The notes below the pieces were generated by a model. It searched no databases. It had not been told where the DNA came from and saw only the letters and a list, made by a program, of their open reading frames with translations. A DNA stretch of 64,000 bases from an uncultured Christensenellaceae bacterium. Its GTDB lineage: Bacteria; Bacillota; Clostridia; Christensenellales; UBA3700. The stretch covers positions 410-64,409 of the forward strand of contig CALWKR010000031.1 of the NCBI GenBank assembly GCA_944381315.1. The letters are read 5' to 3'. Below, piece after piece: positions 38,185 to 48,902 of this stretch. Position 1 is the stretch's first letter, and every line of letters begins with the position of its first letter. Made by a program: the position numbers and the translations under genes.

Positions 38185-39297
38185 TCAAAAAAGGAACATA
38201 TATGCGAGATAGCCGACGAGAGCGACCGCGCCTGCGATCACGATGCCGAGCAACGTCGCTCTGATCGGCGAGATCGGCGCCTTGCCGAACGCCTTGCCCG
38301 TACGCCCGTTGACGACGCAGCCATAGTCCTTTTTGCGGTAGCGGTAGCTGCTGATCCACAGCGGAGCGCAGACATACTTGTAGGTCGTGCCCGAATAGAC
38401 GGGATAGACGTTGATGTATGCGACTCTGTCCGCACGCGGATAACGCGCCTTCACCTTTTCTTTGAGATCGGCGACTATGCTCTCCTTGGCGTATTCCCAG
38501 CTGTCGTCGAGCCCTGTAGAATAGCGTTCCGCCGAAAAGCCGCTCATAAAATCGTCGTCATAGGCGACGGCGTTGACGGTGTCGAAGCCGCCTATCTTGT
38601 TCATCGCCTTGGCGTCGACGTATTGGCTCGCCTCGACTTGGATGTCGTTGTATCTCTCGCCCAACGATCCGCTGACGTGGAACCAGCGCACGCGCGTCTC
38701 CGTCCTCCTGTTCTTGCCCGAGCCGACGACGACGGTGTAGGTCTCGCCCAGCTTGGCTTCGTAAGTGGCGTTGACGTTGCTGTCAAATGTCCACACGGGG
38801 ATATAGACGCCGCGCATCTCCTTGACTTTCGCCTCTTTTTTGAGCTTGTGCGGCGAGAGCCATTTCTTTTTGAGCCACTTGCGCCAATAGCCCTGCGCCT
38901 CTTGCCGAGGTATGGAAAAAGGCAGGATCGCGTTGGGTTTGAGCCCGGGCAAGTCGTCGCGCTCGATGATGTTGGGCGCGCCGCAGAACGGGCATACCGA
39001 CGACGTCTGATATTCTTCAAGCATCGTCTCCGCGCCGCATACGGGACACTTGTATGCCTTGACTCCGCCCCAACTCTGATAGTCCTGCTCGGACAGCGCC
39101 GTGTAGTACAGCTCTTGCGCCGGCTTGGCGACGATCTCGCGCTCGGTGCCGCAATAATCGCAATGCAGCTTTTGCGTGGCGGGATCGAACTTCAAAAAGT
39201 TGCCGCACGAAGGACACTTGTATGTCTCGGACGTGACGCCTTCCGCCTTTTGGGTCAACGGCTCGTCTGCGCCCAAAGTCTGCTCCTGCTCGCTCAT
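38185..39297 (-). CDS. Zinc-ribbon membrane protein (YdjG-like)
   Basis: 370 aa. Three CxxC...CxxC pairs at the N-terminus (CPSCG...CDYCG, CPVCG...CPFCG). C-terminal TM. ATGA overlap with the SPFH gene stop. Confidence 0.6.
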   Translation of the reverse strand: MSEQEQTLGADEPLTQKAEGVTSETYKCPSCGNFLKFDPATQKLHCDYCGTEREIVAKPAQELYYTALSEQDYQSWGGVKAYKCPVCGAETMLEEYQTSSVCPFCGAPNIIERDDLPGLKPNAILPFSIPRQEAQGYWRKWLKKKWLSPHKLKKEAKVKEMRGVYIPVWTFDSNVNATYEAKLGETYTVVVGSGKNRRTETRVRWFHVSGSLGERYNDIQVEASQYVDAKAMNKIGGFDTVNAVAYDDDFMSGFSAERYSTGLDDSWEYAKESIVADLKEKVKARYPRADRVAYINVYPVYSGTTYKYVCAPLWISSYRYRKKDYGCVVNGRTGKAFGKAPISPIRATLLGIVIAGAVALVGYLAYMFLF

Positions 39298-40412
39298 TTA
39301 AGCTTTTCTCCGCACTCGGGGCAGAACTTGGCGCCCGGCTTGACTTGCTTGCCGCACTTGGGGCAAGTGCTGACGAGAGCCTGACCGCATTCGGGGCAGA
39401 ACTTGGCGCCTTTGCGTACCGCCGCATGGCACTTGGGGCACTCGACGGTCTCGACCATGGTCTTGCCGCACTCGGGGCAGAATTTGGCGCCTTTGCGCAC
39501 CTTGGCTCCGCAATGCGGACACGTCTCCTTGTTGTCGTCCGCGCCGATGTTGCTCATGCCGTCGGCGAACATCTTGCCTATCCCGAGCCCTGCGCCCAAG
39601 CCTACGCCTGCGCCGGCAATGCCGCCCGGATTCTTCGCCGCGTCGCGCATCGCCTCGACGGACTGCATTTGGGCATAGCCCTGCATGGCGCCGTTCATCA
39701 CTCCGACGGACGTGCGCTTGTCCATCATCTTCTCCACTTCTTCGGGCAGAGACAGATTCTCGATGTACAGACCCTTGATCTCGATGCCGAGACGAGCAAA
39801 GTCGTCCGCCATCTTTTGGCGCGTGAGCTCGGACAGCTCGTCATAGTGCCCTGCAAGATCGATCGCCGCGATGCCCGACTCCGCGATCGCGGTGCTGAGC
39901 TCGGACACGATGATCTTCTTGAAGTAGTTGTCGACGTCCTTGACGGACAGCTGTCCCATGGAGCCGAACAATTCGCTCATCGCCGCGGTCGGCGTGCCCA
40001 CCGCGAACGAATAGACGCCGAATCCTCTGATGCGCACCATGCCGAACTCCTTGTCGCGCATCATCACGGGGTTGGACGTCCCCCACTTGTTGTCGATGAA
40101 TTGCTTGGTCGAGATGAAATAGATGTCGCCCGTGTACGGCGTTTCCCAAGCGTATTTCCAGTTGTAGAGCGCGGTCAAGAGAGGTATGTTCTTGATGTCC
40201 TCGAGCTTGTAGGTGCCCGGCCCGAACACGTCGGCAAGCTTGCCCTCTTGGATGAACATCGCCTTCTGCCCCTCGCGAACGACGAGCACGGAGTTGCGCA
40301 TGATCTCCTCTTTGCGCTCCAAAGGATATTTCCAGACAATGCTGTTCTGGTCGTCATTCTCCCATTGAATGACCTTGCGGAATTGTCTTTTCAGAAAATC
40401 GAAAAGTCCCAT
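39294..40412 (-). CDS. SPFH/band-7 domain protein (YdjI-like) with three C-terminal zinc ribbons
   Basis: Start ATG 40412 (MGLFDFLKRQF) with SD GAGGAGGA. SPFH-like core. C-terminal triple repeat CPxC-x7-GAKFCPECG. Confidence 0.85.
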   Translation of the reverse strand: MGLFDFLKRQFRKVIQWENDDQNSIVWKYPLERKEEIMRNSVLVVREGQKAMFIQEGKLADVFGPGTYKLEDIKNIPLLTALYNWKYAWETPYTGDIYFISTKQFIDNKWGTSNPVMMRDKEFGMVRIRGFGVYSFAVGTPTAAMSELFGSMGQLSVKDVDNYFKKIIVSELSTAIAESGIAAIDLAGHYDELSELTRQKMADDFARLGIEIKGLYIENLSLPEEVEKMMDKRTSVGVMNGAMQGYAQMQSVEAMRDAAKNPGGIAGAGVGLGAGLGIGKMFADGMSNIGADDNKETCPHCGAKVRKGAKFCPECGKTMVETVECPKCHAAVRKGAKFCPECGQALVSTCPKCGKQVKPGAKFCPECGEKLK

Positions 40413-40481
40413 ATGTCCTCCTCTTCGGCGGTTCGGGCTCTGCCCGAATATCATCTGTCATACCGCCATGATATCATTTCA

Positions 40482-40516: not shown

Positions 40517-41626
40517 TCAAAGTCTGCGCTCGAACTCGTCATAGCCGAACTCGCGCACGAGCTCCAAACTCCCGTCCCTTTTCCGCACACAGATCGACGG
40601 CAGACGCATGCCGTTGAACGTGTTGGTCTTGACCATCGTATAGAGCGCCATGTCCTCAAATCGCAGCTTGTCTCCGACTTGGAGCGGCGCGTCAAAAGAA
40701 TAGTCGCCTATCACGTCGCCGGCAAGACACGTCGGTCCGCCGAGACGATAGGTGTATCTCTTCTCCCCTGCAAGTCCGCTGCCCGTGAGCGGCGGCCGAT
40801 AGGGCATCTCCAACACGTCGGGCATATGGCACGCCGCCGACGCGTCTACGATCGCGATCTTCATCCCGTTGGTCACGATGTCCTCGACGCGGCAGATCAA
40901 ATAGCCTGCGTTGAGGACGACGGCCTCGCCCGGCTCCAAATAGATCGTCGCGCCGTACTTGTCCTGCAAGCGCTTGACTATCGCGACGAGCCGCTCGCGG
41001 TCATAGTCGGCGCGAGTGATGTGGTGCCCGCCGCCCAAGTTGATCCACTTGCAGCGTTTGAGCACCGCTCCGAAAGACGCTTCGAGGGCGCCGACGGTCG
41101 CGTCGAGGTCGTCCGAGTTTTGCTCGCAAAGCGTGTGCATATGCACTCCGTCGAGCATGGACGCAAGCTCTCCGTCAAGCTCGGACGCTATCGTCCCGAG
41201 CCGCGAGAACTCGCCGCACGGATCGTATATCCCGTGTCCTCTCTGAGTGGAGAAGCAGGGATTGAGCCTCAGCCCGACTTGCTTGCCGGCGGCTTTCGCG
41301 CGAGGCAAAAATTTTCGTGCCTGTGTCGGTGAATTGAATATTATGTGATCGACGTAGCCGAGCAGCTCCTCCCACTCTTCTTCGTTGTAGGCAGGCGAAA
41401 AGACATGTGTCTCCTTGCCGAAGCGAGTCTTGCCCAAGCGCGCTTCGTACAGTCCGCTCGCCGTCGTGCCGTCGAGATATTCGCCAATGAGCGGATAGGT
41501 GCAAAAGGCGGAGTACGCCTTCTGGGCAAGCAAGATCTTGCAGCCTGCCCTCTCGCGTACTTCGCCGAGGATCTCCAAGTTGCGGACAAGCGCCGCTTCG
41601 TCTATCTCAAAATACGGGGTGCGCAT
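40517..41626 (-). CDS. nspC: Carboxynorspermidine/carboxyspermidine decarboxylase
   Basis: Start ATG 41626 (MRTPYFEIDEAAL) with a 1-nt overlap on the upstream stop. Alanine-racemase-fold PLP decarboxylase blocks typical of NspC. Confidence 0.9.
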   Translation of the reverse strand: MRTPYFEIDEAALVRNLEILGEVRERAGCKILLAQKAYSAFCTYPLIGEYLDGTTASGLYEARLGKTRFGKETHVFSPAYNEEEWEELLGYVDHIIFNSPTQARKFLPRAKAAGKQVGLRLNPCFSTQRGHGIYDPCGEFSRLGTIASELDGELASMLDGVHMHTLCEQNSDDLDATVGALEASFGAVLKRCKWINLGGGHHITRADYDRERLVAIVKRLQDKYGATIYLEPGEAVVLNAGYLICRVEDIVTNGMKIAIVDASAACHMPDVLEMPYRPPLTGSGLAGEKRYTYRLGGPTCLAGDVIGDYSFDAPLQVGDKLRFEDMALYTMVKTNTFNGMRLPSICVRKRDGSLELVREFGYDEFERRL

Positions 41627-42885
41627 CAGTCTACGAGCACGGGGTCGTCGACGATCTTCCACGGCAAGCCGTTTTTGTTGAGCTCGTCCATGAACGGATC
41701 GGGGTCAAATTCCTCGGGAGTGAACACGCCCTTCTTGTCCCACTTGCCCGTCAAGATCATCTTTGCGCCTATCATCGCAGGCACTCCCGTCGTGTAGGAG
41801 ATCGCCTGAGATTCGACCTCTTTGTAGCACTCCTGATGGTCGCACACATTGTAGATGTAGGCGGTCTTGCGCTTGCCGTCCTTGACGCCCGTAAAGATGC
41901 AGCCGATGTTGGTCTTGCCCTTGGTGCGCGGTCCGAGCGACGCGGGATCGGGCAGCAGCGCTTTGAGGAATTGGATGGGCACGATCTCTCTGCCCTCGTA
42001 TTCGATCGGCGTCGTCGAGAGCATCCCGACGTTTTCGAGACACTTCATATGCGTGAGATAGCTTTGCCCGAACGTCATGAAGAATCTTATCCTCTTGACT
42101 CCCTTGATGTTTTTGGCAAGAGACTCTATCTCTTCGTGATGCAGCAGATACATATCCTTGACTCCGACTCCGTCAAAGTCGTATTGGCGCTTGATGCTCA
42201 TCGGCGCGACCTCTATCCACTTGCCGTCCTGCCAATAGGAGCCGGGCGCGGAGACTTCGCGCAGATTTATCTCGGGATTGAAGTTGGTCGCGAAAGGATA
42301 GCCGTGATCGCCGCCGTTGCAGTCAAGGATGTCTATCGTCTCTATCTCGTCGAACAAGTGCTTTTGGGCATAGGCGCAGAACACTTGCGTGACGCCCGGA
42401 TCAAAGCCCGAGCCGAGCAGCGCCGTCAAGCCTGCGTCCTTGAACTTGTCCTTGTAGTCCCACTGCCATGAGTAGTCGAACAGCGCGCTGAATCCCTCCT
42501 CCTTGCATCTCTTCTCGTATCTCGCCTTCCAGACGGGATCATCGAGGTTTTCGGGTTCATAGTTGGCGGTGTCCATATAGTCCACGCCGCATTGCAGGCA
42601 CGCGTCCATGATCGTCAGATCTTGATAGGGCAACGCGATGTTCATCACGAGATCGGGCTTGTAGCTGCGGATGAGCTCGCAGAGCGCGTCTTGGTCGTCC
42701 GCGTCCACCTGCGCCGTCTTGATGACGGTGTCGGTCGTGCCTTTGAGCTTGGCGGCGAGCGCGTCGCACTTGGAGAGCGTGCGGCTCGCTATCATTATCT
42801 CGCGGAACACATCGCTGTTTTTGCAGCACTTTCTGATTGCGACCGAGGCGACTCCGCCGCAGCCGATGATCAATACTCTTGCCAT
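41626..42885 (-). CDS. Carboxynorspermidine/carboxyspermidine dehydrogenase (saccharopine dehydrogenase family)
   Basis: 419 aa. Rossmann N-terminus VLIIGCGGVA. The length and blocks fit CANSDH, and it sits adjacent to nspC. Confidence 0.9.
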   Translation of the reverse strand: MARVLIIGCGGVASVAIRKCCKNSDVFREIMIASRTLSKCDALAAKLKGTTDTVIKTAQVDADDQDALCELIRSYKPDLVMNIALPYQDLTIMDACLQCGVDYMDTANYEPENLDDPVWKARYEKRCKEEGFSALFDYSWQWDYKDKFKDAGLTALLGSGFDPGVTQVFCAYAQKHLFDEIETIDILDCNGGDHGYPFATNFNPEINLREVSAPGSYWQDGKWIEVAPMSIKRQYDFDGVGVKDMYLLHHEEIESLAKNIKGVKRIRFFMTFGQSYLTHMKCLENVGMLSTTPIEYEGREIVPIQFLKALLPDPASLGPRTKGKTNIGCIFTGVKDGKRKTAYIYNVCDHQECYKEVESQAISYTTGVPAMIGAKMILTGKWDKKGVFTPEEFDPDPFMDELNKNGLPWKIVDDPVLVD

Positions 42886-42895
42886 GATATTCTCC

Positions 42896-43750
42896 TTATT
42901 TGCCGAGCGCGATCAGCATTTCGCGCACGATTTTGCAAGCAACGGCGGTCGAGGCGCCGCTTGGGTCATAATGGGGACTCAGCTCGTTGACGTCGAGTCC
43001 CTTGACGTCGCAACCTTTGACTACCGCGGTCGCGGCGCGACGCAGCGCGTCAAAGCTCACGCCTCCCGGCTCGGGCGTACCGGTGCCGGGGAACACGGAC
43101 GGATCGAGCACGTCGAGGTCGAGAGTGAAGTAGACGGGCTTGCCTTGAAGCGCGCGGACGGCGTCGTCCAAGCCGTCGAAACCGAACTTGACCGTGTCCA
43201 CTCTGCCCTTGCCGAAAACGAACTCGGACTTGTCGCCGGAACGTATCCCGAATTGATGGATCCTGCCGTCTCCGACAAGCTCATAACAACGTCTTAACAC
43301 ACACGCGTGCGAAAATTTTACTCCGAGATAGTCGTCCCTGAGATCGGCGTGAGCGTCAAAGTGCACGATGTGCAGATCGGGATATTTTTTGACTGCTGCG
43401 CGCACCGCCCCGAGCGTCACGAGATGTTCGCCGCCCAGCATGAACGGCGCCTTGCCGTCGCTCAAAATGCGAGCAGCCATATCCTCTATAGCGTCGGTGA
43501 CGAGGACGGAATCGCCTATCGCGAGCTCGAGATCGCCTGCGTCAAAGACGTCGACGTCGGACAGCTCGCGGTCTTGGTAGGGGCTGTATTCTTCAAGCCC
43601 GTAGGACTCGCGTCTGATCGCCGACGGGCCGAAGCGCGTGCCCGGTCTGAACGACGTCGTGCCGTCGTAGGGCGCGCCGAACAGCACCACCGAAGCGCGG
43701 TCATAGTCACAGTCGCAGCCCATGAATGCGTCAATCTGCCTGTTCAACAT
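42896..43750 (-). CDS. speB: Agmatinase
   Basis: 284 aa. Ureohydrolase Mn motifs (GGEH, HFDAHADL, DLDVLDP). Confidence 0.9.
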   Translation of the reverse strand: MLNRQIDAFMGCDCDYDRASVVLFGAPYDGTTSFRPGTRFGPSAIRRESYGLEEYSPYQDRELSDVDVFDAGDLELAIGDSVLVTDAIEDMAARILSDGKAPFMLGGEHLVTLGAVRAAVKKYPDLHIVHFDAHADLRDDYLGVKFSHACVLRRCYELVGDGRIHQFGIRSGDKSEFVFGKGRVDTVKFGFDGLDDAVRALQGKPVYFTLDLDVLDPSVFPGTGTPEPGGVSFDALRRAATAVVKGCDVKGLDVNELSPHYDPSGASTAVACKIVREMLIALGK

Positions 43751-44591
43751 TTTTCAAAAGCTCCTCCACATATGCGGGAATGTAGAACGCTCCTTTGTGA
43801 AGCATCGTCGTATAGTATTTGCATTGCAGTCCGCGCGCGTTCCATCTCTTCTCGTCGAGGTCGCGCAGCGGATGATATTTTTTGGACGCAAAGCCGAACA
43901 GCCAATGCCCCGACGGATAGGTCGGGATGTGCGCCTGATAGACCTTGCTGATCGGGAAGGACTCCACTATCCGCTTGTGCGCGCGCTGGCACGCGAGCGC
44001 GTCCTCGCGGTAGAACGGACTCTCGTGCTGGTTGATCATTATGCCGTCCTCTTTGAGCGCCTTGTAGCAATTGCCGTAGAATTCGCGCGTGAACAGCCCT
44101 TCGCCGGGGCCGAACGGATCTGTGCTGTCCACGATGATGAGGTCGTATTCGTCCTTGCATCCGCGCACATATCTCAATCCGTCGCGGTAGTGGATCTTCA
44201 CGCGCGGATCGTCGAGCGAACAGGTGATCTCCGGGAAGAATTCGCGGCTGACTTCGACGACCTGCTTGTCTATCTCGACAAGGTCGATGTGCTCGATGTC
44301 GTCATAGCGGCACAGCTCGCGCACCGCTCCGCCGTCGCCGCCGCCTATCACGAGCGCGTTGCGCACACGGGGATGCACCGCCATCGCCGGGTGTACGATC
44401 ATCTCGTGGTAGATGAACTCGTCCTTTTGGGTCAGCATCATATAGCCGTCCAGCACGAGGAATCTGCCGAATTCGGGGCTGTCGAACACGTCTATGCGCT
44501 GAAAGTCGCTGTGCGCGCTGTAAAGCTGCTTGTCCACGCGGATGGACAGCTTGACGTCGTTGGTATGTTGTTCCGAAAACCAAAAATCCAT
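43731..44591 (-). CDS. speE: Spermidine synthase (polyamine aminopropyltransferase)
   Basis: Start ATG 44591 (MDFWFSEQH) with SD GGAGGA. IGGGDGG SAM-fold motif and the LVLDG block. Confidence 0.9.
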   Translation of the reverse strand: MDFWFSEQHTNDVKLSIRVDKQLYSAHSDFQRIDVFDSPEFGRFLVLDGYMMLTQKDEFIYHEMIVHPAMAVHPRVRNALVIGGGDGGAVRELCRYDDIEHIDLVEIDKQVVEVSREFFPEITCSLDDPRVKIHYRDGLRYVRGCKDEYDLIIVDSTDPFGPGEGLFTREFYGNCYKALKEDGIMINQHESPFYREDALACQRAHKRIVESFPISKVYQAHIPTYPSGHWLFGFASKKYHPLRDLDEKRWNARGLQCKYYTTMLHKGAFYIPAYVEELLKNVEQAD

Positions 44592-44592
44592 G

Positions 44593-46047
44593 TCATTCCT
44601 CCACAACATTGAGCTTCTCGATGTACGGATCTTCGGGGCCCGTCATCTGGCAGCCCTTCTCTTTGGCATAGGCGATATAATCGAGGATGCGACGCGTGAT
44701 GCGCTCGCCGGGCGCGAGAATGGGGATGCCGGGAGGATAGCACATCACGAATTCGCTGCATATCCTGCCCTCTGTCTTTTGGATAGGGAGCATCTCCTCT
44801 TTGTCGGCATAGAACGCGTCCTGAGGGCTCATCGCGACGATGGGCTCGATGTATTCATACTTCATCAATCCCGCCTTGGACTTCTTGTAGAGGCGGCGTA
44901 TCTCGGCGAGCGCGCTGACGAGCCTCTCGATGTCGCGTTCGCGATCGCCGATGGAGAGATAGGCGAGGATGTTGCCGAGATCGCCGAATTCTATCTGAAT
45001 GTCGTACTCGTCGCGCAGCAAGTCATAGACTTCGATGCCGGCAAGACCTATGTCGAGAGTGTTGACGGACAGCTTGGTCTCGTCAAAGTCGAACACGCTG
45101 TCGCCGTTGATCAGCTCTTTGCCAAAAGCGTAGTAGTCGCCGATGTCGTTGATCTCGTCTCTCGCATAGCGCGCCATCCTCACGACTTCGCCGAAAGCCG
45201 CTTCGCCGCGAAGGGCGAGATTGCGGCGCGAGATGTCGAGGCTGGACAGCAGCAGATAGGACGCGCTGGTCGTCTGCGTGAGGTTGATGACTTGGCGCAC
45301 ATAGCCGTCCTGCATGGACGGACCTGTGAGCAACAGCGAACTCTGCGTCAGCGATCCGCCCGACTTGTGCATGGAGACCGCCGCCATATCCGCGCCTGCC
45401 GCCATTGCCGAGACGGGCATGTCCTTGCCGAAATAAAAATGCGTGCCGTGCGCCTCATCGACGATGCAAAGCATCCCGGCGGCGTGCGCAAGTGACACGA
45501 TCGTGCGAAGATCGCTGCATATGCCGTAATATGTAGGATTGTTGACGAGAACAGCCTTGGCGTCGGGGTGCTCGGCGATCGCCTTGCGCACCGCCGCCAC
45601 GCTCATGCCGAGCGAAATGCCGAGTCTGTCGTCCGTCTCGGGATCGACATAGACGGGAACGGCGCCGTTGAGGACCATGGCGGTCATGACGCTGCGATGC
45701 ACGTTGCGAGGCAAGATGATCTTTTCTCCGCGCTTGGTGACGGTCAAGATCATCGTCTGTACCGCCGACGTCGTGCCGCCCACCATCAAGAACGCGCCGT
45801 GCGAGCCGAACGCCTCGGCGGCGAGCAGCTCCGCGTCGCGGATCACCGATACGGGATGGCACAAGTTGTCGAGGCACTTCATCGAATTGACGTCGAGGCT
45901 GACGCACTTCTGTCCGAGCAGCTCTGTCAATTCGGGATTGCCTCTGCCGCGCTTGTGCCCCGGCACGTCGAACGGCACGAGCCTCATGCTCTTCATCTCT
46001 TGCAGCGCCTCATAGATGGGCGCGCTCGTCTGAGACAGCTTCTTCAT
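44593..46047 (-). CDS. speA: Orn/Lys/Arg decarboxylase family enzyme (Firmicute-type arginine decarboxylase)
   Basis: 484 aa. PLP-lysine context [15 protein letters not shown] overlap with the speD stop. Confidence 0.85.
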
Positions 46048-46814
46048 TTACGTGCAGAAAAGACGTTGCGGCCGCTGAATATCTCTATCATCTCGCGGCG
46101 CAGGTTGTCCATGATCTCGAGGCGCGTGCGCGGCGGCAGTTCATAGACGTCTGTCTTGAACAGATAGTTTTGGAGATCGATGTCCTTGACCATCATTTTG
46201 GTGTGGAAAATGTTGGCCTCATAGACGTTGATGTCCACCGCGTCGTAGCGGCGCAGCGTCTCGGGGGCGATGTAATCTTGGATGGAAGTGACGTTGTGGT
46301 CCATGAAGAGCTTCTGCCCGTCCACGTCGCGCGTGAAACCGCGCACGCGATAATCGAGCGATATGATGTCCGAATCAAAGGACCCGATCAAATAATCCAG
46401 CGTGGACAGAGGCGTGATCTCGCCGCACGTCGCGACGTCGATGTCCACACGGAAAGTCGCGAGCGACGTCTCGGGATGGAACTCGGGATAGGTATGCACG
46501 GTGACGTGGCTCTTGTCGAGGTGCGCAAGCTGCGTTTCGCCGGCAGGGACCATGCTGTTCTCGGCGATGAGTACGGCGACGGACGCGCCCTGGGGATCAT
46601 AATCTTGACTTGCGATGTTGAGCACCTTCGCGCCGATCATGTCGGTCAGCGTGGTCAAGATGTTGGTCAGTCGCTCGGAATTGTACTGCCCGTCGATGTA
46701 GGCGATGTAATCGCGCTGCTCGCGCGCCGTCTTGGCGTAGCAGACGTCGTAGATGTTGAAACTGAGCGATTTGGTCAGGTTGTTGAACCCGTACAGTTTG
46801 AGTTTGTCTCCCAT
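46044..46814 (-). CDS. speD: S-adenosylmethionine decarboxylase proenzyme (long, E. coli-type)
   Basis: Start ATG 46814 ([29 protein letters not shown]), collinear with E. coli SpeD as I recall it. Confidence 0.9.
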
Positions 46815-47117
46815 ATTCGTCTCCGAGAAAAAGGGCGATATGCTGTCTGCATATCGCCCGTAAAACAATCTCGTTATCCGACACGGATACCTCACAGAGT
46901 CTATATAGCAAATACACTTTTACTACTCTTATTGATTGTTTTACAAGCGGTCGTGCTCTCGCACCGGTTATTAAGTAACCAACTCATAAGATCGAGCGAA
47001 CTCGATCACAATAAGGCAACTTGCGTTGCGTTCGGCAGTGGACCCGGCTGTCCGTATGGCCTTACCCCTTTCGGGAGGTCCGAATATTTGCATGGATACT
47101 CTGATGATATCGCATGT
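46815..47117 (-). promoter_or_regulatory. ~300-nt structured 5' leader of the polyamine operon (unclassified cis-regulatory RNA candidate)
   Basis: Lies between promoter 47124-47152 and the ATG at 46814. Contains several tetraloop-capped hairpins (46953-46965 GAGA, 46990-47007 UUCG, 47016-47029 GCAA, 47065-47078 GAAA) and ends in an intrinsic terminator. Confidence 0.6.
46826..46859 (-). terminator. Intrinsic terminator (attenuator) inside the speD leader
   Basis: Minus strand reads GGGCGATATGC-AGACA-GCATATCGCCC followed by TTTTT. The T-run ends 12 nt before the speD ATG. Confidence 0.75.
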
Positions 47118-47123
47118 AACCTT

Positions 47124-47152
47124 ATTGTAGCCGAACACAGACGATAAGTCAA
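47124..47152 (-). promoter_or_regulatory. Sigma-A-type promoter of the polyamine operon (TTGACT-17-TACAAT)
   Basis: Minus strand reads TTGACT (47147-47152), a 17-nt spacer, and TACAAT (47124-47129). Confidence 0.75.
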
Positions 47153-47405
47153 CCATATGCGACCAAAAAGATATGGCGCTCATATGTTCGCGCTCTTTTT
47201 CGCACGCATGCGCTTTTTGAGTTCTTCCTTGATCGTGTTGGATCGATCGCGCCCCAGCTCTGTGCGAAAATATGATCGAGACCGAGAAGATCGCTCCCGG
47301 CAACACTTCTTTTCCCTCTATTTGGTGCGCGCGTGCGCTCACAAGCATATGCATGCTCGCGCGCGGAATTTTCGCGCAAATTTTACAGTCGAGGCGTATT
47401 TTTCT

Positions 47406-47433: not shown

Positions 47434-47453
47434 AGAGGAAATCAGGAGAAACA

Positions 47454-48902
47454 ATGGAAAAAGTTAGAACGAGATTCGCCCCCTCTCCCACGGGCTTTAT
47501 GCATATCGGCAACCTTCGCACCTGCCTCTATGCCTACCTCTTTGCGAAAAAACACAACGGGACTTTTGTCCTCCGCATCGAGGATACGGACCGCGAACGC
47601 TATGTGGACGGAGCCGTCGACGTCATCTACCGCACGCTCCAAACCGCAGGGATCACCCACGACGAAGGCCCCGACAAGGACGGCGGCTACGGGCCGTATA
47701 TCCAAAGCGAACGCAAGGACATCTATATGCGCTATGCCCGAGAGCTCGTCGAAAGAGGCGGCGCGTACTACTGCTTTTGCACCAAAGAACGCCTCGCGTC
47801 TTTGGGCGACGGCAGCGGCGTGCACAAGTACGACAAGCACTGCCTCTCGCTCTCGCCGCAAGAAGTCAAGGCAAAACTCGACGCAGGCGAGCCTTTCGTC
47901 ATCCGCCAAAACGTCCCCACCGAAGGCGTCAGCGAATATGACGACATGGTCTTCGGTCACATCGCCGTTCCCAACGCCGACATGGAAGACAACATCTTGA
48001 TCAAGTCGGACGGCATGCCGACTTACAACTTCGCCAACGTCGTCGACGACCATCTGATGGCGATCAATTACGTCATCCGCGGCATGGAATATCTGTCGTC
48101 GACGCCCAAGTACAACTTGCTCTATGACGCGTTCGGCTGGGAAAGACCGCACTATATGCACCTGCCGCCGATAATGAAGGACGCACAGCGCAAGCTGTCC
48201 AAGCGTTACGGCGACACCAACTTCGAGGACTTCCTCGCCAAGGGCTATCTGCCCGAAGCGATCGTCAACTACATCGCCCTGCTCGGCTGGAGCCCCAAGG
48301 ACAACCGCGAAAAGATGAGCATGCACGAGCTCGTCGAGCTGTTCGACGTGGACGGCATCTCCAAGTCTCCGTCCATCTTCGACGAGGCAAAGATGAAGTG
48401 GCTCAACGGCGAATACATCAAGTGCATGACGCCCCGAGAGTTCGCCGATCGCGCCAAGCCATTCTTGGACGCGAGCGCGGTCGCCGGCAAGTTCGACTAT
48501 CTCAAAGTCGCGAAACTGCTCATCCCGCGCGTCGAGATCTTCTCGGAGATCGCCGACAAGGTGGAGTTCCTGCGCGGCTTCGGCAAGTACGATCCCGCGA
48601 TGTTTGAACACAAAAAGATGAAGATCACTCTGCCCCTCGCCCTCGAGGTGCTGACGCAATGCGCGGAAGTTCTGCCGAGCGTGGACGAGTGGACGGACGA
48701 AAACCTCAAAGCCGTCCTCGGCGAGATCGCCCAAAAGGACGGGCGCAAGAGCGGACAGATCTTCTTGCCTCTCCGACTTGCGCTGACGGGCGCCGCGACC
48801 ACCCCCGGCGGTGCGACCGAAATGGCGGAGCTGCTTGGGAAGGAAGAATCGCTGCGCCGCCTCGACTTCTCGATCGGACTGCTCAAAGAGGCGCTTGCAT
48901 GA
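47454..48902 (+). CDS. gltX: Glutamate--tRNA ligase
   Basis: 482 aa. HIGH-type motif PSPTGFMHIGN and KMSKS-type motif KLSKR. Confidence 0.95.
   Translation: MEKVRTRFAPSPTGFMHIGNLRTCLYAYLFAKKHNGTFVLRIEDTDRERYVDGAVDVIYRTLQTAGITHDEGPDKDGGYGPYIQSERKDIYMRYARELVERGGAYYCFCTKERLASLGDGSGVHKYDKHCLSLSPQEVKAKLDAGEPFVIRQNVPTEGVSEYDDMVFGHIAVPNADMEDNILIKSDGMPTYNFANVVDDHLMAINYVIRGMEYLSSTPKYNLLYDAFGWERPHYMHLPPIMKDAQRKLSKRYGDTNFEDFLAKGYLPEAIVNYIALLGWSPKDNREKMSMHELVELFDVDGISKSPSIFDEAKMKWLNGEYIKCMTPREFADRAKPFLDASAVAGKFDYLKVAKLLIPRVEIFSEIADKVEFLRGFGKYDPAMFEHKKMKITLPLALEVLTQCAEVLPSVDEWTDENLKAVLGEIAQKDGRKSGQIFLPLRLALTGAATTPGGATEMAELLGKEESLRRLDFSIGLLKEALA

Follow-up and report, generated by a model that had tools for sequence, protein, structure and literature searches.

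The ldcC motif in the leader of a Christensenellaceae speD operon is one branch of a larger, conserved RNA that is coupled to a terminator

We have analysed a stretch of DNA of 64,000 nucleotides from an uncultured Christensenellaceae bacterium (contig CALWKR010000031.1), referred to here as the window, in which a six-gene polyamine operon that begins with speD is preceded by a structured leader RNA. The leader adds a member to the ldcC motif, an orphan family that is already known, but with an architecture much larger than has been described for that family. Coordinates are positions in the 64-kb window; the leader and the operon are read on the minus strand. The promoter, the terminator and the genes of the locus are located as follows:

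47124-47152, minus strand: sigma-70-type promoter, with the -35 box TTGACT (47152-47147), a spacer of 17 nucleotides and the -10 box TACAAT (47129-47124); 10 of 12 matches
46828-46859, minus strand: intrinsic terminator, an 11-base-pair stem GGGCGAUAUGC/GCAUAUCGCCC (46859-46833) with the loop AGACA, followed by U5 (46832-46828)
46824-46820, minus strand: Shine-Dalgarno sequence GGAGA, part of the operon span (40517-46824)
46814-46044, minus strand: speD, adenosylmethionine decarboxylase (TIGR03331, 392 bits), with its AUG at 46814
46047-44593, minus strand: arginine/ornithine/lysine-type decarboxylase dependent on pyridoxal phosphate, second gene
44609-43731, minus strand: speE, third gene
43750-42896, minus strand: speB, agmatinase, fourth gene
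42885-41626, minus strand: carboxy(nor)spermidine dehydrogenase-like gene, fifth gene
41662-40517, minus strand: nspC, sixth gene

The promoter, the terminator and speD, together with four hairpins that are capped by tetraloops, all lie on the minus strand at the positions given to them by the original prediction, which had been made from the letters of the sequence and had proposed an unclassified regulatory RNA at this locus. Transcription probably starts near 47117; relatives of the speD subgroup, as read by eye, have TTGACA/TATAAT boxes 8-14 nucleotides 5' of the equivalent first helix. The leader of 306 nucleotides is more stable than its shuffled controls (z = -5.05), with 0 of 100 shuffles as good.

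The comparison of the whole window with Rfam 15 has returned a single match, the ldcC motif RF02440 ("SpF59 sRNA / ldcC RNA"), located at 47081-47032 on the minus strand, with 66.3 bits against a cut-off of 37.2, an E-value of 1e-9 and the model covered from 1 to 54 of 54. The features of the family are present in the leader: the bulged hairpin with its invariant nucleotides, the core AAGGCCAUACGGACAGCCGGGUC, the 3' tail CACUGCCGA with UGCCGA, and the position in the 5' untranslated region directly before speD, in a Firmicutes-type setting; the closest relatives of SpeD and of the leader are Clostridia, from assemblies of Christensenellaceae, Gemmiger and Anaerofilum. The ldcC motif has been described by Weinberg et al. 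(2017, PMC5737381) as widespread in Firmicutes and as "a hairpin with a bulge", to which an invariant pseudoknot may be added; it is usually located in the 5' untranslated region of arginine, ornithine or S-adenosylmethionine (SAM) decarboxylase genes and of potA; it was regarded as a likely cis-regulator, possibly linked to polyamine homeostasis, and no ligand was reported (PMC5737381). The leader of the window shares with the published motif the phylum, the position in the 5' untranslated region and the classes of genes; the published structure differs in that it is here one branch of a fold of about 240 nucleotides, and a branch that is sometimes absent.

A permissive Rfam scan of the leader (46700-47300, E<=10) has found no T-box, SAM, lysine or other riboswitch family, and the leader matches no validated riboswitch class, in agreement with the original prediction for the classes that it had compared; a 16.6-bit match to a viral pseudoknot was dismissed as chance, and RF02440 was the sole Rfam family in the leaders of the ten related loci that were scanned. 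Two other statements of the original prediction have to be given up: the leader is not unclassified, the confident match to RF02440 being, in the letter, a result that the prediction itself had named as its refutation, and the remark that a polyamine riboswitch class had yet to be established is outdated, because a spermidine-sensing variant of the SAM-I riboswitch, which terminates transcription, was validated in 2023 (Salvail et al., PMC10853860). In the literature that we have searched, where only the 2017 and 2023 papers were relevant, we have found no extended ldcC structure.

The conservation of the leader continues past the end of the Rfam model: by blastn, the leader of the window is 75-80% identical to its relatives up to leader position 266 (window 46895), and these relatives include Bacillus-type and Clostridium-type genomes. 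Our family comparison covers about 230 related loci, and the counts given here and below refer to loci among the matches listed. One set, from genomes, was picked by the exact 23-nucleotide ldcC core and comprises at least 120 species, with Paenibacillus, Bacillus, Neobacillus, Brevibacillus, Lactococcus, Oscillospiraceae, Lachnospiraceae, Christensenellaceae, Acidaminococcus and Dehalobacter among its taxa. For the part that is located 3' of the core, we have built a covariance model, R1, from 65 loci among which the window was not included, and with the ldcC core left out; in the 64 kb of the window, R1 has a sole match, at 47040-46896 on the minus strand, at full length, with 101.9 bits and an E-value of 1.2e-21, and in all 100 core-selected loci that were searched there is one R1 match, adjoining the core. 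The 54-nucleotide Rfam model is a subdomain, and the conservation takes in about 150 nucleotides more; the complete RNA is a multi-helix fold of about 240 nucleotides, roughly four times the catalogued motif, plus an expression platform.

The reverse test, in which metagenomes were scanned for the invariant 3' block TCAATAAGAGTAGTAAAAGT, has yielded at least 120 loci, 110 of them with enough upstream DNA. The ldcC domain is present in 97 of these 110 loci, namely in 64 with the exact core, in 32 with a core that carries up to five substitutions, and in one (L226) whose divergent core was missed by the pattern and detected by Rfam; one more locus, L187, is a remnant within a coding region, where R1 reaches only 23 bits. 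In the remaining 12 loci (L129, L130, L133, L135, L156, L168, L180, L194, L197, L199, L214 and L239), the 5' strand of the first inner helix, P0, runs straight into helix P2 and the whole ldcC domain is absent: R1 scores 73-141 bits, there is no RF02440 match, and wherever downstream DNA is available the RNA still lies before speD or before decarboxylase-speE-speB operons, followed by the same type of terminator. Since the extension is kept in twelve polyamine leaders that are devoid of the ldcC domain, the constant part of the family is the domain outside Rfam, and the catalogued 54 nucleotides are an optional branch of the family RNA. In favour of the original prediction, about three quarters of the structure that it described fall outside the Rfam model, in this constant part.

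The elements of the proposed structure are listed below from 5' to 3', with the strands that take part in the putative switch:

47098-47117, minus strand: outer closing helix, 5' strand, with ACAUG (47117-47113), GAUAUC (47111-47106) and CAGAGU (47103-47098)
47116-47107 with 47099-47091, minus strand: alternative local 5' hairpin, CAUGCGAUAU with GUAUCCAUG, which uses the same bases as the outer helix
47084-47091, minus strand: P0, 5' strand GCAAAUAU, located 5' of the Rfam model; pairs with 46915-46908
47032-47081, minus strand: ldcC motif, with P1, P1a, the 23-nucleotide core AAGGCCAUACGGACAGCCGGGUC (47063-47041) and the tail CACUGCCGA (47040-47032)
47081-47077 with 47044-47040, minus strand: P1, GGACC/GGUCC, paired in 93-98% of 94 relatives
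47076-47073 with 47068-47065, minus strand: P1a, UCCC/GGGG, which covaries; hairpin CCUCCC-GAAA-GGGG at 47078-47065
47016-47029, minus strand: P2, GCAAC-GCAA-GUUGC, with compensatory changes in 6 of 6 pairs (MAFFT) or 5 of 5 (model-based alignment)
47009-47015, minus strand: strand C, CUUAUUG, which pairs with E', CAAUAAG (46934-46928), in at least 97% of sequences
46990-47007, minus strand: P3, GAUCGAG-UUCG-CUCGAUC, with compensatory changes in 4 of 6 pairs (MAFFT) or 5 of 5 (model-based)
46982-46989, minus strand: strand D, UUAUGAGU, which pairs with E, GCUUGUAA (46948-46941), and encloses P4 and P5
46965-46981, minus strand: P4, UGGUUA-CUUAA-UAACCG, with UA-to-CG compensation of one pair in 4-5 sequences
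46953-46964, minus strand: P5, GUGC-GAGA-GCAC, variable in length and sequence
46934-46949, minus strand: block E, CGCUUGUAAAACAAUC, proposed 5' strand of an antiterminator, overlapping strands E and E'
46916-46930, minus strand: near-invariant single-stranded block AAGAGUAGUAAAAGU, whose AGAGU can pair with ACUCU (46900-46896)
46908-46915, minus strand: P0, 3' strand GUAUUUGC, partner of 47091-47084
46896-47040, minus strand: conserved 3' domain absent from Rfam, with P2, C, P3, D, P4, P5, E, E', the AAGAGUAGUAAAAGU block, the P0 3' strand and GACUCU
46881-46900, minus strand: outer closing helix, 3' strand, with ACUCUG (46900-46895), GGUAUC (46891-46886) and CGUGU (46885-46881)
46855-46870, minus strand: proposed 3' strand of the antiterminator, GAUUGUUUUACGGGCG, overlapping the first 5 nucleotides of the 5' arm of the terminator

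The ldcC hairpin is one branch of this structure, in which there are seven or more other helices besides a long helix that closes the fold and a terminator that is coupled to it; the closure makes a junction that carries P1 (the ldcC domain), P2 and an arm of C:E', P3, D:E, P4 and P5. When the aptamer-only transcript is folded, the state of lowest energy is the closed structure in the window and in 79 of 101 relatives. C:E' and D:E are predicted independently by RNAalifold and by the minimum-energy fold of the window.

In the alignment of the relatives, invariant blocks alternate with variable hairpins, among them P2, P3, P4 and P5. For 36 pairs of P0, P1, P1a, P2, P3 and P4 in the MAFFT alignment, 91.8% of the cells are paired, against 83.5% in shuffled alignments, and both sides have changed in 272 cells, against 79.5 in the shuffles, none of which (0 of 500) reaches the observed values; when the partners are slid by 1-3 columns, at most 49% of the cells are paired. 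In the model-based alignment, which leans towards the structure because it was fitted to it, 98.6% of the cells are paired and 16 pairs have compensatory changes. As P5 and the outer part of P0 were not correctly aligned by MAFFT, we have also compared duplex energies, in which each 5' strand is combined with the 3' strand of its own locus, of another locus or of a shuffled sequence: the values are -9.2, -7.1 and -4.8 kcal/mol for P0, -20.9, -16.0 and -12.5 kcal/mol for the outer helix across the family, and -7.2, -5.6 and -2.9 kcal/mol for P5, while the alternative local 5' hairpin covaries more weakly (-7.5, -6.3 and -5.5 kcal/mol). An all-against-all screen for covariation was abandoned, as it was swamped by noise compatible with G-U pairing.

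P0 has compensatory changes in 5 of 7 pairs, as illustrated by the combinations GCAGAUAA/UUAUUUGC, GCAAUUA/UGAUUGC, GCAAGAU/AUCUUUGC and CAGCGA/UCGCUG; outside P0, the first 20 nucleotides of the transcript are paired with the stretch that follows GACUCU. In the window, the duplex of the 5' end with 46915-46879, P0 included, comprises 25 base pairs at -27.2 kcal/mol, and GAGGUAUCCGUGU, in the region of the outer 3' strand, is approximately a direct repeat of GAGUAUCCAUG (47101-47091). The closing pair of P1 also covaries (UA in 47 sequences, GC in 32, CG in 8). D:E is paired in 99% of the cells, with changes that are mostly one-sided and one pair that is G-C in 2 sequences.

The hairpins of the original prediction, at 46965-46953 (GGUGC-GAGA-GCAC), 47007-46990, 47029-47016 and 47078-47065, are all kept in related leaders, and the conservation and covariation that it had proposed to look for in relatives have both been found: covariation is clear for P1a, P2 and P3, P4 has one compensatory pair, and P5 has the support of its duplex energies only. 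A conserved, structured, cis-acting leader with a terminator is borne out by the family comparison; an enclosing UUCGG...CCGAA stem, which had also been suggested, is not, with four of its five pairs forming in only 20-35% of 94 relatives.

Within the ldcC domain, the core is invariant in the set that was selected by it, and so are the nucleotides of the proposed tail/bulge pseudoknot, while the U of UGCCG varies (C, A or G) with no visible change in its partner. Two metagenome variants (AAGGCU...GACGGCC) have U in place of C at core position 6 and, at the same time, G in place of A at position 15. This may point to a GGCC/AGCC hairpin inside the so-called bulge, where a C-A would be replaced by a U-G; in the metagenome variants of the core, the loop positions AUA also vary (ACA, GAA) and CGGAC is fixed. 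Two other pairings have been dropped: ACUGC:GUAGU in the ldcC tail, which is predicted for the window and has an A-G mismatch in Bacilli as read by eye, and GGUCAA of block E with a 5' UUGACC, which is broken by the AAUC variant of the window, the closing pair of P1 covarying with the core instead.

The genes that follow the RNA are almost without exception genes of polyamine metabolism, as the original prediction had proposed for this locus: the first downstream gene is of polyamine type (speD, an Orn/Lys/Arg-type decarboxylase, carboxyspermidine dehydrogenase or potA) in 191 of 197 listed loci. The genome loci (96 of 96) divide into 32 with an Orn/Lys/Arg decarboxylase, 25 with SAM decarboxylase (speD), 24 with a saccharopine-dehydrogenase-type protein (carboxyspermidine dehydrogenase) and 15 with a PotA-type ATP-binding cassette (ABC) ATPase; the metagenome loci (95 of 101) comprise 57 with a decarboxylase, 21 with speD and 17 with potA. 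On the upstream side, no recurrent neighbouring protein family was found, any one being shared by at most 5 of 75 loci.

We have then compared the terminators that follow the conserved domain. In the window, block E is predicted to pair with 46870-46855 over 16 base pairs, and, as read by eye, this downstream strand tracks the AAUC of the block E of the window, where most relatives have GGUC. In 73 of 101 loci, from Paenibacillus to Oscillospiraceae, the 5' arm of the downstream terminator starts with the complement of block E, mostly GCAAGU; with a terminator finder that is blind to this motif, the motif is found in 21 of the 48 terminators that belong to leaders and in 12 of the 226 others in these loci. 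In a scan of leader segments over 52 loci, for which terminators were found without reference to the motif and energies were expressed relative to shuffled arms, specific complementarity to the 5' shoulder of the terminator is seen for block E and for no other segment (-4.7 kcal/mol relative to the shuffled arm, in 83% of the loci), all other segments lying within about +/-1.1 kcal/mol of shuffled arms. Two earlier scans of this kind were discarded, one confounded by segment length and GC content, the other circular in that its terminators had been picked by the motif.

Two features of riboswitches are present in the leader: a conserved, structured, aptamer-like domain with covariation, and a terminator with a mutually exclusive antiterminator that uses nucleotides of the aptamer, the latter being predicted, and metastable in most members. 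The pairing of block E with the terminator encloses the 3' strands of P0 and of the outer helix, and therefore cannot nest with P0 and the outer helix; by topology, the closed and the antiterminated states would exclude each other. For the full leader of the window, the two states are nearly equal in predicted energy, at -105.3 kcal/mol for the antiterminated fold and -103.2 kcal/mol for the closed fold with the complete terminator. In Bacilli (L021, L023, L033, L002 and others), the terminator is located 130-190 nucleotides after the conserved RNA, and the intervening region holds a stretch similar to the 5' outer strand; this stretch is able to pair with the 3' outer strand, as a third competing partner.

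We propose that the transcript from about 47117 to the U-tract at 46828 is one cis-acting RNA of the ldcC family, which controls the speD operon by premature termination and whose closed state is stabilised by a polyamine; we give this reading a probability of roughly 0.6. The 5' end (47117-47084) pairs with 46915-46881 through P0 and the outer helix and closes the large fold; in this closed state, block E would be locked in D:E and C:E', the 11-base-pair terminator would form, and the operon would be off. When closure fails, the 5' strand would fold into the local hairpin and the 3' strand of P0 would be buried in the local AGAGU...ACUCU hairpin, an alternative that the sequence allows; the freed block E could then pair with 46870-46855 as an antiterminator, and RNA polymerase would read through. 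The local hairpins may form first and delay closure, which would be one route for kinetic control. The closed state would be stabilised by the putative direct binding of the end product, a polyamine, most plausibly spermidine, and closure of this kind would give feedback repression of the genes of synthesis and uptake. Feedback control of polyamine synthesis by premature termination is the most likely function of the RNA; direct binding of a polyamine is our leading guess for the sensing step, with a trans-acting factor as the main rival.

A number of observations weigh against this proposal. In full leaders of the relatives, the antiterminator fold lies 12.8 kcal/mol above the closed fold, and when the RNA is cut before the 3' arm of the terminator it is still 5.3 +/- 7.7 kcal/mol higher; the antiterminator is part of the minimum-energy fold in only 3 of 71 loci, and it comes within 5 kcal/mol of the closed fold, or is better, in 33 of 71. 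As the closed fold is usually favoured, any switch must be kinetic. The closing duplex of 25-40 base pairs is unusually strong for a ligand-dependent helix. C:E' and D:E, the helices that would lock block E, are compatible with pairing and unproven by covariation, a test that fails because both are almost invariant. The off-with-ligand direction is inferred from the regulon, 12 natural variants have no ldcC domain at all, and in the literature searched we have found no ligand or mechanism for the ldcC motif.

Several of these observations would be expected if the leader were an attenuator that is read in trans, either by a polyamine-responsive RNA-binding protein or by an enzyme of the RNase III type that cuts the long duplex between the 5' and 3' ends. 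The closing duplex is longer than a helix gated by a ligand normally needs, the closed fold is the thermodynamic ground state of most members in the ligand-free state, no published ligand was found in the literature searched, nine years after the description of the motif, and single-stranded blocks such as the 23-nucleotide core and AAGAGUAGUAAAAGU are extremely conserved across families. On the other hand, the neighbourhood of the RNA holds no protein family that recurs, with only polyamine enzymes and transporters downstream, and the element is carried by very different lineages of Bacillota, throughout which the factor would need to be universal; we know of no polyamine-responsive trans factor of the required kind. 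We consider a trans-acting factor unlikely, yet the rival to be taken most seriously. The same ground state could also be the default of an ON switch, in which a precursor or a deficiency signal favours the block E antiterminator over the closed, terminated fold, the antiterminator being only metastable. The regulon, however, mixes routes that depend on arginine, on SAM and on aspartate semialdehyde with uptake by potA, which have the end product in common and no shared precursor, and the conserved blocks are helical in the closed fold, as is normal for an aptamer; an ON switch seems to us improbable.

The type label of RF02440 in Rfam (Gene; sRNA, SpF59) raises the question whether the leader, once terminated or processed, works as a small RNA in trans, all the more as a stable, terminated leader of about 290 nucleotides would arise at each termination. 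In the loci surveyed, the RNA is located directly before a polyamine gene, whose orientation it shares, the terminator is tied to an alternative pairing that is conserved, and no information on SpF59 targets was found in the source paper or in its text supplements, all of which makes a role in trans highly improbable. A metabolite-dependent, self-cleaving ribozyme that destabilises the mRNA is slightly less probable again: the size and the very high sequence conservation resemble glmS, but the arrangement of terminator and antiterminator already accounts for regulation, and the leader matches no Rfam ribozyme family at E<=10. The least credible explanations, to which we assign next to no weight, are attenuation by a leader peptide and chance hairpins. 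An AUG at 47092 on the minus strand, inside the 5' strand of P0, does start a reading frame that runs through the leader for about 40 codons; this AUG is confined to the speD subgroup, members outside it having AGCAG or AGCAA at that position, and a conserved leader peptide is unlikely because helix lengths vary by 1-2 nucleotides and insertions measure 20-70 nucleotides, which no frame would tolerate. Chance hairpins are excluded by the conservation and the covariation.

Among RNAs that are already understood, the spermidine riboswitch is to be compared with the present leader: it also occurs in Bacillota, upstream of polyamine genes (there ldcC, speE and speB-type), and it is an off switch with an intrinsic terminator and an antiterminator that competes for the left shoulder of the terminator, the same mechanism as the one proposed here (PMC10853860). 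Termination triggered by spermidine is an established RNA mechanism in the same phylum. The fold of that riboswitch, a four-helix junction of the SAM-I type in which the positions of ligand contact are altered, is unrelated to the present RNA, and our leader is not one of its members, because no SAM-family match is found at E<=10. The spermidine riboswitch has been described as rare, with 13 representatives in the consensus alignment (PMC10853860), against at least 120 of the present RNA in each of two collections.

T-box and lysine-riboswitch leaders are likewise 200-300 nucleotides long, with several helices and a choice between terminator and antiterminator; the present leader matches neither model at E<=10, and the conserved blocks differ. 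The M-box (ykoK) riboswitch for Mg2+ is a large, conserved, multi-helix leader of Bacillota, in which compaction by the cation hides the antiterminator strand and leads to the terminator. It may offer a plausible analogy for a sensor of polycations, as a functional speculation only; the leader has no Rfam match or sequence similarity to it.

That an RNA should sense polyamines directly is an obvious possibility, and the only validated class is a rare variant of SAM-I; the ldcC-type RNA is far more widespread and precedes essentially every kind of polyamine synthesis or uptake operon of Bacillota. We tentatively suggest, with somewhat less than even confidence, that the 54-nucleotide "ldcC motif" is really a terminator-coupled riboswitch of about 240 nucleotides and the main polyamine sensor of Bacillota, in which the 150-nucleotide part that is in no database would be the constant, ligand-responsive domain, the ldcC hairpin would serve as an accessory branch that may be absent, and the polyamine-driven closure of a very long helix between the 5' and 3' ends would shut synthesis and uptake operons. 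If this were true, negative results would be expected from tests of the short motif as published, and full-length constructs would make the ligand directly testable; more generally, the larger functional unit changes which RNA should be synthesised and probed, and gives concrete mutants. For annotation, pipelines based on Rfam mark only 50 nucleotides of such a leader, under the name of an sRNA, and the variants without the ldcC domain escape them. The wider result concerns the family rather than the locus of the window.

Individual members of the family depart from the common structure at fixed points, where insertions are tolerated. A Faecalibacterium member (L039, 7034-7262) has 70 nucleotides in the loop of P3, in another locus (L053, 3972-4140) a second hairpin similar to P4 is present, and in one Oscillospiraceae group, among the loci listed with insertions (L036, L040, L054, L064, L066, L089, L099, L101 and L110), the UGCCGA tail is separated from P2 by an additional hairpin. 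A potA-associated member from Lactococcus cremoris HP (L094, 1300-1469) is divergent, with only 42.8 bits for ldcC and 53.6 bits for R1: the arms of P3 are swapped (AACUC/GAGUU), the P4-P5 region is replaced, and UCAAUAAGAGU...GACUCU is retained; this member may help to define the minimal RNA. Other structured RNAs occur near two members, a glycine riboswitch on the opposite strand about 300 nucleotides from the ldcC-type leader of Blautia glucerasea (L006, 4024-4133), and a TwoAYGGAY RNA elsewhere in a metagenome locus (L156, 3327-3491).

The operon of the window (40517-46814) carries both known routes to spermidine-type polyamines, namely aminopropyl transfer by speD and speE and the route of carboxy(nor)spermidine dehydrogenase and nspC; the decarboxylase and the agmatinase that make putrescine are also encoded, and the full six-gene set is located 3' of the same RNA in at least four other loci. 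In the mechanical list of open reading frames, genes of the operon overlap by 4-37 nucleotides at 46044-46047 (the stop of speD and the start of the decarboxylase), 44593-44609, 43731-43750 and 41626-41662, so that their translation may be coupled; for nspC, where the overlap is longest, the cause may be only an over-extended GTG start. Upstream of the leader, an open reading frame of 430 amino acids (47442-48734, minus strand), which has no NCBIfam match, ends near a terminator-like hairpin at 47482-47466, while 3' of the operon two open reading frames (38185-40454, minus strand) have weak matches of the zinc-ribbon type only.

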